From: an uncultured Dehalococcoidia bacterium
GTDB lineage: Bacteria > Chloroflexota > Dehalococcoidia > Lucifugimonadales > GCA-2712585
Direction of reading: 5' to 3'
Assembly (NCBI GenBank): GCA_964418665.1
Contig: CAYQLZ010000010.1
Span: 14,723 to 78,722, forward strand
DNA length: 64,000 nucleotides
Shown here in pieces: positions 1,679 through 54,778 of the stretch (position 1 is the stretch's first letter; each line of letters begins with the position of its first letter). The notes below the pieces were generated by a model that saw only the letters and a program-made list of their open reading frames with translations, did no database searches and was not told where the DNA came from. The position numbers and the translations under genes are program-made.

Positions 1679-3517
1679 CTACTGATACACGGGCACCGTA
1701 TGCTCGTGATAGCGGTAGGTCCCGAAGTTGCTGAAGTTCACCGTATAGTCCTCAACCACGTCCGGGTTGTAGGCCACCTGGGAGAATACCCAGACCAGCG
1801 GAATCGTGAACGCCTTGTCATGCCAGGCATCGCCGAAAGCAATCGCCCCTGCGTCCCGCTCCTCTACACTCGTAGCCGAGCGGCAAACCTCTTGGAGAGT
1901 GTCTACCTCTTCGAACTCGCGGTATCCCACACCGCTATCGTGAGGGAAGCCGAATTGAATGCGGTTGCAAATTGGGCTGTACCCCGGCGACGCCCCATAC
2001 ATCCAGCTGGGGTCTTTGCCAGACTGCGCTTTGGCGCGGAATTCGCCAAAGTTCTGGTCAATCTCCAGTTCGGCAGTAACGCCAACCGCGGCAAAGTACT
2101 GGATAATCTGCTCGCACATGGATGGCCAGTCCGGGATCACCCGATGGGTGCGTAGGCAGTTGATGCGGGTCTCGAAGCCGTCAGGGAATCCGGCGTCGGC
2201 CAGCATCTCCTTCGCCGCTTCGGGGTCGTAGGGATAGGGCCATCCACCTTCCTTGCCGGTTCGACCGTCAGGGCCAGGGACGGGAGCCCACCGGTCCTGC
2301 CAGTCGGAGCGCCACGTCGGGTATTCGTCAACCAGCGGGAAGCCCTCCCCGTTATAGAACACCTCGTTGAGCTCGTTCCGGTCCACCGCGTAATTAAGGG
2401 CCAGGCGAACCTGGGGATTCCGCAGCGGGTCGTTCGGATCGTAGCCCTCGGGATCTCCCTTGGCACGCCCACCCGACGGTGGCTCACCGGTTTCAGGATC
2501 AACGTAATTCATCTCCCGGTAGTAGATGAACGCTATGGCCTGATTGACGCTCGGCAGCGTGGCCTTGCTTATCGAGTATCCAGCGCTCTGTATCTGCTCC
2601 CTCTGGTCTGCCACCAACGGGATGATGTCTGCCTCTCCACTGAACAGCATGGCTAGACGGGTGGCCGGTTCCTGAATCTGCAGGAATTGCAACTCGTGAA
2701 ACTCAGGCGTCTTCCTCCAGTGGCCTTCTACCCGCTCGTGCAGGTACGACTGGTCTACCTGGTGGCTTACGTAGGACCAGGGTCCGGTGCCTACCGGATC
2801 TGCCTGGTAGCCCTCCTCGCCGCCGACCGCGTCCCAGTGATCACGGCTCATTATGCCCGATTCCCACACGTCAGAAACGTTAAAGGGAAGCTCCAGGTTA
2901 ACATTGGGGGTATGGGCAATTACCTTGAATTCATTGACCACTTCCCAGTCCTCTGGATCGCCCAACAGGCCGTGCCACCGTCCCGGACTCCTGGTCAGCG
3001 TGGTTGGGAAATTGCCAATATCGCCAATCAGAAGGTCCCACGTCATGGTCAGGTCTTTGGCGCTGAAGGTGAAGTCGCCATAAGGCTCTCCGCCCTTGTA
3101 GAAGGGTACGCCCTCTCGCAGCTCGAAAGTCCAGGTCTTGCCATCGCCGCCGGAGTCCCACGCAAGGGCCAATTCCGGAAGCTCTTCGTTGCTGCGAATG
3201 TCGTGTCCTATCAGGTGCTCGTATTCCGGCATCTTGGCCCAGGACACCTGGCTGCCGGGATAGGGTATCGTGTATTGCTCTCCATCCACCGGGTTCGCGG
3301 TGATCAGGCGAGTCTTTACAGGCACGGGCTCAGCCTCGGTGGGTGCAGGCGTGGGGGCCGCTGTGGTTGGCGCCGCCGTTGCCGCGGGAGCCGGAGCGGA
3401 AGTCGCAGCAGGCGCGGCCGTTGCCGCGGGGGTTGCCTCTTCCTCTTCGTCGCCACCGCAGGCTGCAATTGTCATCACCAGTAGAACAAGCAATGACAAG
3501 GCAATTACGCCCCGCAT
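1679..3517 (-). CDS. ABC transporter substrate-binding lipoprotein, family 5 (peptide/nickel type)
   Basis: Long ORF with SBP_bac_5-like body. Start taken at ATG 3517 (MRGVIALSLLVLLVMTIAACGG lipobox) rather than track start 3601. An Ala/Pro/Thr-rich linker follows the Cys. Confidence 0.85.
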   Translation of the reverse strand: MRGVIALSLLVLLVMTIAACGGDEEEEATPAATAAPAATSAPAPAATAAPTTAAPTPAPTEAEPVPVKTRLITANPVDGEQYTIPYPGSQVSWAKMPEYEHLIGHDIRSNEELPELALAWDSGGDGKTWTFELREGVPFYKGGEPYGDFTFSAKDLTMTWDLLIGDIGNFPTTLTRSPGRWHGLLGDPEDWEVVNEFKVIAHTPNVNLELPFNVSDVWESGIMSRDHWDAVGGEEGYQADPVGTGPWSYVSHQVDQSYLHERVEGHWRKTPEFHELQFLQIQEPATRLAMLFSGEADIIPLVADQREQIQSAGYSISKATLPSVNQAIAFIYYREMNYVDPETGEPPSGGRAKGDPEGYDPNDPLRNPQVRLALNYAVDRNELNEVFYNGEGFPLVDEYPTWRSDWQDRWAPVPGPDGRTGKEGGWPYPYDPEAAKEMLADAGFPDGFETRINCLRTHRVIPDWPSMCEQIIQYFAAVGVTAELEIDQNFGEFRAKAQSGKDPSWMYGASPGYSPICNRIQFGFPHDSGVGYREFEEVDTLQEVCRSATSVEERDAGAIAFGDAWHDKAFTIPLVWVFSQVAYNPDVVEDYTVNFSNFGTYRYHEHTVPVYQ

Positions 3518-49929: not shown

Positions 49930-50003
49930 CCTATCCCATGTGACCCTGTCCTCCCCAAAGGAGAAAGGCAGATATGGGAATAAACCCACCAAAGGAGACA
50001 ATC

Positions 50004-50729
50004 ATGACCACCATTGCTCCCAGCTATCCTGAAGTTGGAGATATCTCTCCGAATTTCACCCTGCCATCCCTCCACGGCAACCTCATCTCCATCTCCTCCT
50101 ACAGGGGCAGGAAGGTCATCGTATTCATGTGGGCCTCCTGGTGAGGATGCCGCGGTCAGCTGCCGGTCTGGCAGCAGTTCTACCGTGAACACGCCGGGAA
50201 GGATGTGGTCATCCTATCCGTCGCCGTGGACGCCCAGGGCGCAGAGAAGGCCCTCCCCTTCGTCGAGAGCGCAGGCGCCACCTTCTCAACCGTAGTGGAC
50301 AGGAACAACCTGCTCAGCCGCATATTCGGCTTCAAGGCTATCCCCAACGCGATATTCATTGACGAAGACGGCGTCATCCAGTATCTGAAGTACTCCGGCT
50401 TCGATATCATCAAGGCCGAATACAGGCAAATCGCCGAAGCATGGGTGTCCACCGGAGAAATGCCCGAACTCGACTCGCCGCAAGACGCCAATGTTACCGA
50501 TTCTGAAAGCAGCCACTCGGAGGCCGTCCGACTCTTCGACGAAGGCATGAGCCTCTATAACGCCGGGCAGGTAGAAAAGGCGCTTGTCCTCTGGAGAAAA
50601 GGCGTAGCCCTGGAACCTGACAACTACGTCATCAGAAAGCAGATATGGGCCGTGGAAAACCCGGACAGGTTCTACGAAGGCGACGTGGACTACGATTGGC
50701 AGAAGGGCCAGCTGGCCCGGGGGCTCTAA
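50004..50729 (+). CDS. TlpA/redoxin-like thiol:disulfide oxidoreductase, probable selenoprotein (Sec at TGA 50142-50144)
   Basis: ATG 50004 has AAAGGAGA 5 nt upstream. The same frame runs through the TGA at 50142 into track ORF 50205..50729. It reads ...GRKVIVFMWASW-U-GCRGQLP...VVILSVAVD, the redoxin signature, and a SECIS-like hairpin lies downstream. Confidence 0.65.
50151..50187 (+). promoter_or_regulatory. candidate bacterial SECIS element
   Basis: Upper stem GCTGCC/GGCAGC (50159-50164 / 50170-50175) with a GGTCT loop. Lower stem 50151-50156 / 50182-50187 (one G-U pair). It starts 7 nt after the TGA. Confidence 0.55.
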
Positions 50730-51968
50730 CCCACCAACGCCCCTTTTACCACTTGCCCTGACTGAATCACAACCTGCACGTTGGACTTATCCTGCAATAG
50801 CCGGATATCCTCCAGCGGGTCTCCGTCCACGATAATCACGTCCGCCAGCTTCCCAGCCTGCAGCGTGCCCACCTCATCGACTATTCCAAACAGCTCGGCA
50901 TTGTTTCGGGTGGCGCAAATCAGGCTCTCCATCGGACCAAGCACGTTTGCCTGCAACTCCAGCGATAGCGCCCTCCCTTCGGCGTAAGGCCCGAAGACGT
51001 CCGAACCGGACCCTATCTTGAGGCCCACGGACTGCGCTATCTCCAGGCTCTGCCCACCCACGTCCCGCACCGTGTTTATCTTCTCCAACATGGACTCCGG
51101 CGCTCCGTTCGCCCTTCCATATCTGCTAGACATTTCGAAGATTGCCAGCGTAGGCACCAGAAAAACGTCGCTCTCCTTCATCAACGACGCTGATTCTTCG
51201 TCCATAAAATTGCCATGCTCGATGGATCGGATCCCAGCCTCCACGCAATTCTTGATGCCCTGTGGGACGTAAACATGAGCACAGACGTATTTCCTCACCG
51301 CCCGCGCCTCATACACCGCCGCCGCCAGCTCCTCCACGGTGTACTGCGGGTCTTCCACCGCGTCCGTGGGCGAGGCCGCTCCACCGCCCGCCATAATCTT
51401 GATCTGGTCGGCGCCCGTTCGCAGCTGCCACCGGGTGGCGTAACGCACCTGGTCCGCGCCGTCCGCGATGGCCGAACCGGCCATCAGCGGATGATCGTGA
51501 TGCTCGCTGCGACGGTCGTGGCGTAGCCGGTGGTCCCCATGTCCCCCCGTTTGAGAAATAGGTCCGTTGCTCACGAACATGCGGGGGGCCCGGGATAAGT
51601 CCCCGCTCCACCGACTCCTTGAAGCTCCAGTCACATCCGCCCGTGTCCCGAATGGTCGTATAGCCCTGCATCAGCGTATTTTCGATGTTCCGCGCCACCG
51701 AATAGGCAAAGACGACCCCGGGATGCTTGTCCTCGTATTCGGCAATCTTCGCTTCCAGCAGCGCCATGTGGGCGTGGGCGTCCATCAGGCCCGGCATCAC
51801 GGTTCGCCCTCCCACGTCAACCATCCTGGCGTCACGAGGAATTGAAACGCTTTCGGCCGCCCCCACGTCCTGAATCCGGTCCCCGTTGATCACCAGCGTT
51901 CCCCCCACAATGGGGTCCCGGCCGGTGCAGTCTATGATATTAGCGTTGCAAAGCGCATACGTATCCAT
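50726..51968 (-). pseudogene. amidohydrolase (COG1228-like), interrupted by a +1 frameshift in a C6/G6 run
   Basis: Two overlapping track ORFs (51309..51983 and 50726..51634) together read ...MPGLMDAHAHM...ERGLIPGP | RMFVSNGPISQTGGHGD.... Removing one G from GGGGGG at 51583-51588 joins them. Confidence 0.75.
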
Positions 51969-52078
51969 GCTCACCCCCAACATTCGCTTTAGGATAACCA
52001 GCCCCGCCCTTCATTCCGATGAACCCGAATTCCAGGGCCTGAAAAGCGTCACACTGAATAGGCGCCGGCCCCCAATGC

Positions 52079-54369: not shown

Positions 54370-54778
54370 GAGGAAGAAAGAAGGGCCTGTAAGCCGGGTT
54401 CTGTATCCCTAATCGGGGTGGCGACCATCTATCTAGCCCTTCCACCTCCGTGGGGGTGGAATCACCGGTGCGCCGGTGACGACGTTGCCGCCGGGGTCGT
54501 GCGGCCTACCCGGGGAAGGGCCGGGCGCCCTGCTCCCCCTATTTGGCCTTGCTCCGAGTGGGGTTTGACTGCCGATGCGTCACCACAGCCGGCCGTGAGC
54601 TCTTACCTCACGATTTCAACCTTATCCCACTGCGTGGGACGGTGTGTTTCTGTGTCACTTTCCGTGACCGCCGCCCATTGGACCGCGGCCCCTGGGCGTT
54701 ACCCAGCACCCTGCCCGGTGGAGCCCGGACTTTCCTCTCCGCCGAAGCGCAGCGGCCGCCCGGCCCTTCTAATCTTCC
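54370..54778 (-). ncRNA. rnpB: RNase P RNA, bacterial type A
   Basis: The minus strand contains GGAGAGGAAAGTCCGGGCTCCACCGGGCAGGGTGCTGGGTAACGCCCAGGGG (rc of about 54690-54740), GGAGCAAGGCCAAATAGGGGG, and ACAGAACCCGGCTTACAGG (rc of 54386-54404). P1 pairs GAAGATTAGAAGGGCC with GGCCCTTCTTTCTTC. Ends are accurate to about +/-5 nt. Confidence 0.92.

Follow-up and report, generated by a model that had tools for sequence, protein, structure and literature searches.

The 64,000-nucleotide (nt) stretch analyzed here (hereafter the window) comes from an uncultured Dehalococcoidia bacterium of the phylum Chloroflexota (assembly GCA_964418665.1, contig CAYQLZ010000010.1) and carries, at positions 50004-50729 of the forward strand, a thioredoxin-fold gene that is interrupted by an in-frame TGA codon. 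Direct reading and translation of this region give a single frame that opens with ATG at 50004-50006, runs through TGA at 50142-50144 and terminates with TAA at 50727-50729. A Shine-Dalgarno-like element, AAAGGAGA, is present on the same strand at 49991-49998, 5 nt upstream of the start codon. The translation ahead of the TGA codon is MTTIAPSYPEVGDISPNFTLPSLHGNLISISSYRGRKVIVFMWASW (ending in FMWASW) and resumes behind it as GCRGQLPVWQQ..., such that the motif W-A-S-W-TGA-G-C spans positions 50130-50150. In a mechanically produced list of open reading frames (ORFs), the gene is split into two entries, 49974..50144 (56 aa) and 50205..50729 (174 aa). Both in related contigs and in independent assemblies that contain the gene, gene callers chose the same initiator Met for the 46-aa N-terminal fragment, and tblastn matches in other genomes cross the TGA codon in one frame over query residues 1-241. 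On the basis of comparative sequence evidence, we assign a probability of about 90% to the reading that 50004-50729 is one gene, encoding a 241-residue selenoprotein with selenocysteine (Sec) at residue 47 that belongs to the 'UGC-containing Prx-like / TlpA-like' family. Reading of the sequence confirmed the positions that the first-pass annotation had given for the Shine-Dalgarno site, ATG, TGA, TAA and the upper part of a hairpin downstream of the TGA codon.

Conservation of the TGA codon was examined by extracting the codon aligned to it from 83 loci, that is, the window and about 80 Chloroflexota/Dehalococcoidia genomes together with metagenome contigs. The underlying scan used one genome per species; 279 genomes were found to encode a relative, and the best 80 loci, nearly all from Dehalococcoidia/Chloroflexota metagenome-assembled genomes (MAGs), were taken. 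The MAGs nearest to the window gene (chromosomes OX638324.1 and CBDBNU010000003.1) encode proteins with 88-89% identity to it. The codon is TGA in all 83 loci and TGC or TGT in none of them, and no homologue with two separate genes or a natural stop at this point was observed. The surrounding pattern is [FY]-x-W-[AG]-S-W-U-x-C-R-x-Q-L-P-[VG]-W-Q. An exhaustive HMMER search also detected distant homologues that have Cys in the Sec column and retain the same one-residue spacing to the second Cys (CIC, CQC, CHC, CYC, CSC, CTC and CRC). Therefore, the one-residue spacing is a trait of the family, within which the Dehalococcoidia clade has Sec in the first position. Taken together, the invariant TGA and the Cys residues of the distant homologues support the initial proposal of one gene in which TGA encodes Sec at the site of the first redox Cys.

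Nucleotide diversity at the first, second and third codon positions was 0.27, 0.22 and 0.51 over the 35 codons before the TGA and 0.39, 0.36 and 0.57 after the hairpin, and it follows that both sides are probably translated in the same frame. As judged from these codon-position values, purifying selection is shown to act on one frame both before and after the TGA, which is itself universally conserved. An identical copy of the gene, with the TGA, was found in each of four independent Logan assemblies, which argues against an assembly or sequencing error. Within the window, TGA is also the terminator of 13 of the 54 other predicted ORFs; thus, the genetic code of this organism appears to be standard rather than reassigned. 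A protein-level search returned 366 relatives, and 119 of the best 120 are proteins of 160-196 residues whose first residue lies downstream of the TGA column, as in 'MCREQLPVWQQ...' and 'MPVWQQF...'. The sole full-length entry among these 120 (P0010) shows Trp at the column because its source used another translation table; its DNA reads TGA.

The candidate Sec insertion sequence (SECIS) lies shortly downstream of the TGA codon, at 50159..50175 on the forward strand and within the codons for Q-L-P-V-W-Q. It consists of a 6-bp upper stem (GCUGCC/GGCAGC, 50159-50164 paired with 50170-50175) that closes a 5-nt apical loop, GGUCU (50165-50169), whose first nucleotide is at +24 from the U of UGA. 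We aligned the TGA codon plus 51 nt from 73 distinct sequences, and the alignment is gapless. Columns 19-23 pair with columns 29-33 in all 73 sequences and make up the inner five base pairs of the stem. The outer pair (columns 18-34) is G-C in 52 sequences, and pairing amounts to 90.4% when a further C16-G36 pair is counted with the helix. In 500 shuffles of the alignment columns, neither the pairing nor the count of double changes nor the covariation score of the real alignment was reached. The loop has the form N-G-[U/G]-N-U, where the G at position 25 is invariant (73/73) and position 26 is U in 50 sequences and G in 23. RNAalifold retained only the 5-bp upper stem, and no alternative conserved structure was found.

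Since the encoded peptide fixes most of the stem positions, synonymous sites were examined. The Leu codon in the stem is CTG in 63 sequences and TTG in 10; it is thus G-ending in 73 of 73 cases, compared to 51% for Leu codons at other sites of these genes. The pair formed by columns 19 and 33 is the only stem pair that is free to vary on both sides (CG in 63 sequences, UG in 6 and UA in 4), and it co-varies: the second Gln codon is CAA in 4 of the 10 sequences with the TTG Leu codon, giving U-A in place of C-G, and in none of the 63 with CTG, which always occurs with CAG (Fisher p = 1.9e-4). As far as can be read from codon usage, this shows that synonymous sites at the hairpin are under RNA-level selection. 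A separate regularity is seen at the base of the hairpin, in columns 18 and 34 (window 50159 and 50175). Where column 34 is G because of a Glu or Asp codon, column 18 is A in 16 of 16 sequences, so that A stands opposite G and G never does; the Gln codon there is always CAA, although 82% of the Gln codons at other sites are CAG.

We also compared the hairpin with the consensus bacterial SECIS (bSECIS) model (PMC13188914), which describes an upper stem of 4-16 bp capped by an apical loop of 3-9 nt, a G at the first or second position of the loop with G or U directly after it, a distance of 16-37 nt from UGA to the apical loop, and a minimum free energy (MFE) of -7.5 kcal/mol or lower. Here, the loop has 5 nt and the stem 6 bp in the window, with the inner 5 bp formed throughout the 73 sequences; the loop starts with G-U or G-G; the distance is 20 nt (50145-50164 in the window) in all 73 sequences without indels; and the 28-nt segment of the window has an MFE of -11.6 kcal/mol, the family mean being -11.7 and 72 of the 73 sequences passing the threshold. 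By this comparison, the conserved hairpin is shown to fit the bSECIS model and is thus a putative SECIS element. The hairpin that had been proposed from the sequence of the window thus proved to be conserved in every TGA carrier, whereas only one of its two proposed stems stood: the upper stem is supported, but the lower stem (50151-50156 with 50182-50187; columns 10-15 with 41-46) was rejected as a part of the element, as only 27.9% of its cells are paired across the 73 sequences. In the window itself the lower stem can be drawn with one G-U pair, yet it lies outside the MFE structure.

The hairpin resembles the SECIS element of Escherichia coli fdhF in that both are intragenic, immediately follow the UGA and form a 17-nt mini-hairpin with a GGUC(U) apical loop. 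The fdhF segment used for this comparison, TGACACGGCCCATCGGTTGCAGGTCTGCACC..., matches fdhF with 100% identity in 5419 E. coli genomes; its GGUC loop occupies +22..+25, in agreement with the value of about +22 given in the first-pass annotation. However, the distance from UGA to the hairpin is 14 nt in the window gene and 11 nt in fdhF, and the G-U dinucleotide is placed at +25/+26 rather than +23/+24. Unlike the fdhF element, the window hairpin has no bulged U and no conserved lower helix, and the loop U is replaced by G in 23 of the 73 family members.

Two further homologous loci were noted. A 32%-GC marine (Tara) contig contains a homologue (L093:140-829) with TGA, in the context U-V-C, which its source translated as Trp, and this homologue retains the hairpin by means of a TTG/CAA pair. 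Therefore, the family appears to extend well beyond high-GC Chloroflexota. Another locus (L039, at about position 3271) retains the Sec TGA but has an additional in-frame TAG about 53 codons later (...TVVD*ENLL...), which is either a pseudogene or an assembly error.

Several observations weigh against the selenoprotein reading. No tRNA-Sec was found in the 64-kb window, where ARAGORN predicted no tRNA at all, nor in the flanks of 90 fetched loci (618 kb), and selA, selB and selD were not found among the ten window ORFs of suitable size, which match transporters, amidases and similar Pfam families. Rfam gave no match to a SECIS family at its gathering thresholds in the window, where the only match was to RNase P. 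When folded alone, the window hairpin is no more stable than expected by chance (MFE -21.1 versus -20.35 +/- 2.79 kcal/mol for dinucleotide shuffles, z = -0.27), and evidence for a more-than-chance hairpin comes only from comparison with other genomes. Most of the stem positions are set by the conserved QLPxWQ peptide, which is partly conserved in Cys-containing forms as well; thus, the covariation rests on only a few synonymous sites. In addition, the two readable Cys-form loci disagree: the C-T-C form (L091) retains the hairpin and the C-I-C form (L092) has lost it, its peptide being QLPSWQ with a CTA Leu codon that breaks the stem.

Sec utilization by this lineage has indirect support. Directly 3' of one homologous redoxin gene lies an ORF of the PrdB/GrdB family (PF07355; L088:5588-6580) with 219 codons, which ends at a TGA in the context T-S-T-U-P-V-C; its frame runs on for about 105 codons past this TGA, and the gene is annotated as truncated. 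On this pattern, it is a putative second selenoprotein gene, of the classical UxxC type. Moreover, Dehalococcoidia MAGs with 46 and 49 selenoproteins appear in the BSepDB paper among the bacteria that are richest in such proteins. The neighboring gene and this listing suggest, albeit indirectly, that the lineage uses Sec.

These data were weighed against three other explanations. Gene callers invariably split the gene (the ORF list of the window, and calls of 46 aa plus 167-196 aa in related contigs), and this, together with the failure to see Sec machinery in the window, would fit a pseudogene or two genes, in which a 46-residue peptide would end at a nonsense mutation or a natural stop, with the ORF of 174 residues from GTG 50205 being translated separately or not at all. 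We consider this hardly credible, as the TGA is invariant across species whose proteins are only about 50% identical, purifying selection is seen in one frame on both sides of it, and the split would cut the thioredoxin fold exactly at its catalytic residue. The downstream starts chosen by the gene callers also differ among homologues (MPVWQ, MCRE, MAVD and MSVAVD); therefore, there is no conserved internal start. It is also very unlikely that the TGA is decoded as Trp, Gly or Cys, whether through reassignment of the code, through a suppressor tRNA or through near-cognate read-through. Two public sources do translate the homologous codon as Trp (P0010 and P0127), and the Sec machinery is known to place Cys at UGA when selenium is limiting, which also counts for such decoding. 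However, the Trp stems from the translation tables that these sources chose for short contigs, the DNA being TGA in each case, and TGA serves as an ordinary stop in the window. In alignments, the column coincides with the catalytic Cys of homologous proteins; it is followed, at the appropriate distance, by a conserved SECIS-type hairpin, and a classic UxxC selenoprotein gene appears to adjoin one homologue.

The remaining explanation, which we regard as improbable, accepts Sec insertion but ascribes it to some other element, the hairpin being a by-product of the conserved peptide Q-L-P-V/G-W-Q without a function as RNA. Its merits are that four of the six stem pairs never vary and are fixed by amino acids, that QLP and W are common in Cys-form homologues, one of which (L091) keeps the hairpin, and that the stability of the single sequence is unremarkable. 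Against it, the synonymous constraint follows the pairing, both in the G-ending Leu codons and in the occurrence of CAA only opposite TTG, and G in column 18 faces G in column 34 in none of 16 cases in spite of the prevalence of CAG elsewhere. Furthermore, the Cys form with the QLPSWQ peptide uses a Leu codon that breaks the stem, and the search for an alternative conserved structure found none. On balance, a selenoprotein gene with its own SECIS hairpin is the reading that we prefer.

Two residues after Sec47, the predicted protein has Cys49 (50148..50150, +), the presumed resolving partner in a U-G-C center, encoded by TGC in 66 and TGT in 7 of the 73 distinct sequences. Among these Dehalococcoidia subfamily sequences, the middle residue of U-x-C is Gly in 38, Ala in 30, Val in 2, and Asp, Arg and Ser in one each. 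In one Dehalococcoidia MAG (CBDCXW010000001.1; L076:3109-3117), the sequence reads TGA GGG TGA (U-G-U) with one downstream hairpin; the second TGA may mark a variant with two Sec residues, or it may be a sequencing error. Residues 11-133 (50034..50402, +) form a ResA/TlpA-like thioredoxin-fold domain: with Cys typed at the TGA position, Pfam reports AhpC-TSA (3.6e-19) and Redoxin (3.2e-18) over these residues, and sequence matches in the PDB include thiol-disulfide oxidoreductases of the ResA, DsbE, TlpA and StoA types, with E values down to 2e-16. HMMER opened a one-residue gap inside the CxxC motif of 3kcm, 3hdc, 3gl3 and 4nmu (WCg-CR versus WCpPCR), which supports the earlier observation that the center has U-x-C rather than UxxC spacing.

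An AlphaFold2 model was available for the homologue P0010; as Trp occupies the Sec column in this entry, the model is not informative on active-site geometry. It shows a thioredoxin fold (pLDDT, the predicted local distance difference test score, 83; pTM, the predicted template-modelling score, 0.80) in which helix alpha-1 starts at residues 46-47, the Sec position, followed by a five-helix C-terminal domain at 164-233. Its best structural matches are ResA/DsbE proteins, with target-normalised template-modelling scores of 0.83-0.85 (0.81-0.85 over 4nmu, 3gl3 and 1su9), and they cover only the N-terminal 140-150 residues. The C-terminal helical domain (50511..50726, +) resembles tetratricopeptide repeats (TPRs): Pfam gives a weak, sub-threshold TPR_2 match at residues 177-207, and multi-TPR proteins match residues of about 169-203. 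Together with the modelled helices, this match supports the TPR-like extension that had been noted from the sequence. The domain ends in the most conserved part of the family, the tail EPDN[YW][VI]IRKQIWAVENPDRFYxGDVDYDWQ, and the invariant columns of the family alignment are found mainly in the C-terminal region. At the other end, the N-terminus (MTTIAPSYPEVGDISPNFTLPSL...) has by inspection no hydrophobic run in residues 1-30, and the fold begins at residue 11; because it lacks an N-terminal hydrophobic segment, the protein is probably cytoplasmic. Four full-length homologues (P0122, P0216, P0224 and P0234) share the C-terminal motif and have lost both redox residues (S-G-S, S-P-S, S-D-S and D-V-S); they look like redox-inactive paralogues.

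A family with this center has been described before. Zhang & Gladyshev (2008), in their paper on the Global Ocean Sampling (GOS) data, reported 'Prx-like (UGC-containing)' as a selenoprotein family with the domain pfam00578, the motif UGC and 46 Sec-containing sequences. The family is also listed in a 2026 review (PMC13188914), which cites Zhang & Gladyshev 2008 and Peng et al. 2016; the main text of Peng et al. 2016 does not mention UGC, and a full-text literature search for 'WAxxUGC' found no paper. Members of the family are printed in supplementary file 3 of Zhang & Gladyshev 2008, and one of them, JCVI_READ_1095901167516, aligns to the window protein with 39% identity (E 8e-62); the 233 aligned residues take in the C-terminal motif. 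This sequence reads ...YMWASWUGCRGQLPGWQ... around the Sec residue and ends with ...DPENWLIRKQLWAIETPEAFYDGNVDYGWQK, the tail motif IRKQLWAIETPEAFYDGNVDYGWQK being common to both proteins. The window gene thus has the features by which the published family was defined, namely a thioredoxin-like fold (pfam00578 / cd02966), an in-frame TGA within U-G-C and significant similarity. It follows from the fold, the U-G-C center and the similarity to a published member that the window gene is a member of this selenoprotein family. The U-G-C center, which the first-pass annotation had regarded as unusual, is therefore real but not a new oddity, as it defines a published family.

In common with the published GOS members, the window protein has the AhpC-TSA/redoxin fold, the motif W-[AS]-S-[WY]-U-G-C followed by L-P-[VG]-W-Q, and a helical C-terminal region. 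Most GOS members, however, carry an extra N-terminal domain of about 85-130 residues with the motif KPEGxCxxxxC[IV]P, whereas the window protein starts directly at the thioredoxin fold, and the middle residue of the motif is not always Gly in the Dehalococcoidia subfamily. A similar relationship is seen with the best NCBIfam match, NF041054 'WAxxUGC_long' (ResA-like WAxxUGC motif-containing protein; E 1.8e-45). The W-A-S-W-U-G-C motif is present, and residues 15-125 map to the thioredoxin domain at profile positions 84-194, but at 155.8 bits the match stays below the curated cut-off of 300, and the first 83 of the 354 profile positions have no counterpart. Thus, the window protein is best considered a relative and not an equivalog member.

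Compared to ResA, TlpA and DsbE (CcmG), the window protein has the same fold and the same W-x-x-W-C...C-R...P context. It differs from them in having U-x-C, with the second residue one position closer, in place of C-x-x-C; Sec replaces the first Cys. No anchor or signal peptide is apparent by inspection of residues 1-30, and the C-terminal helical domain is additional. One residue between the two redox residues is also characteristic of CxC motifs and of thioredoxin-like selenoproteins of the Sep15/SELENOF type, in which the order is C-x-U instead of U-x-C. The window lineage is bacterial, and no homology to these proteins is claimed.

The genes around the family members were also inspected. 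No partner gene is conserved in the neighborhood of distant members; thus, genomic context offers no functional clue. A tRNA-Asp(GTC) gene lies immediately 3' of the selenoprotein gene (about 30-200 nt) in about 20 of the fetched loci (including L030, L031, L032, L036, L044, L047, L050, L051, L053 and L054), and on a 5.6-Mb contig a 68-residue glutaredoxin-like ORF (L089:4600-4806) is found directly 5' of the homologous gene. The window lineage instead has a convergent amidohydrolase gene at 50726-51983 on the reverse strand, which is split into overlapping ORFs of 302 and 224 aa in different frames. An indel is located near 51545-51590, where blastx indicates a frame switch, and an 85%-identical relative (L001) has a single 413-aa gene. 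The split looks like a real frameshift or a pseudogene in the population, since independent assemblies give the same 302-aa call. A full-length match to the bacterial class A RNase P RNA (233.5 bits) was found at 54374-54771 on the reverse strand. No second credible case of two ORFs connected through a single TGA emerged when the window was scanned.

A possible mechanism can be outlined by analogy with known systems. When a ribosome reaches the UGA at 50142, the 17-nt hairpin 14 nt downstream (50159-50175, with the loop N-G-U/G-N-U) would recruit SelB-GTP-Sec-tRNASec, and Sec would be inserted in place of termination, as in established bacterial Sec decoding. Sec47 would then be placed at the N-terminus of helix alpha-1 of a ResA/TlpA-type fold, at the position of the attacking Cys of CxxC, from which, following general thioredoxin-fold chemistry, it may attack a substrate disulfide, a peroxide or another electrophile. 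Cys49 would be the likely resolving residue, and the resulting selenenylsulfide would bridge a single residue in a tight U-x-C ring unlike the ring of CxxC-type proteins. Recognition of a partner or substrate is the probable role of the helical TPR-like domain with its near-invariant tail. Insertion of Sec, the chemistry through a selenenylsulfide and the cytoplasmic location are all inferred. No Cys form was found among the 80 closest species, and it is a tentative and rather doubtful idea that the short, apparently cytoplasmic form, which prevails in Dehalococcoidia, represents a functionally distinct, obligately selenium-dependent subfamily.

The existence of the family and of its motif was already known, and the main value of this analysis is practical and lies in annotation. 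Because a U-G-C selenoprotein family was catalogued in 2008, the result is an annotation fix rather than a discovery; what is new is confined to one further member, in a short form with U-[G/A]-C and no N-terminal domain, and to the mis-annotation of the family in public MAG protein sets. Of the 120 closest relatives in public protein collections, 119 are entered as fragments whose truncated N-terminus leaves out the catalytic residue, and a few entries wrongly show Trp; thus, the family is systematically mis-annotated in Chloroflexota MAGs. The gene may also serve as a clean marker of the decoding of UGA as Sec in this Dehalococcoidia lineage. Should the tight U-x-C ring, or a diselenide ring of the U-x-U type, and the invariant tail indeed carry out chemistry beyond that of CxxC proteins, this would be an uncharacterised redox activity, and it would reside in one of the most selenoprotein-rich bacterial lineages.

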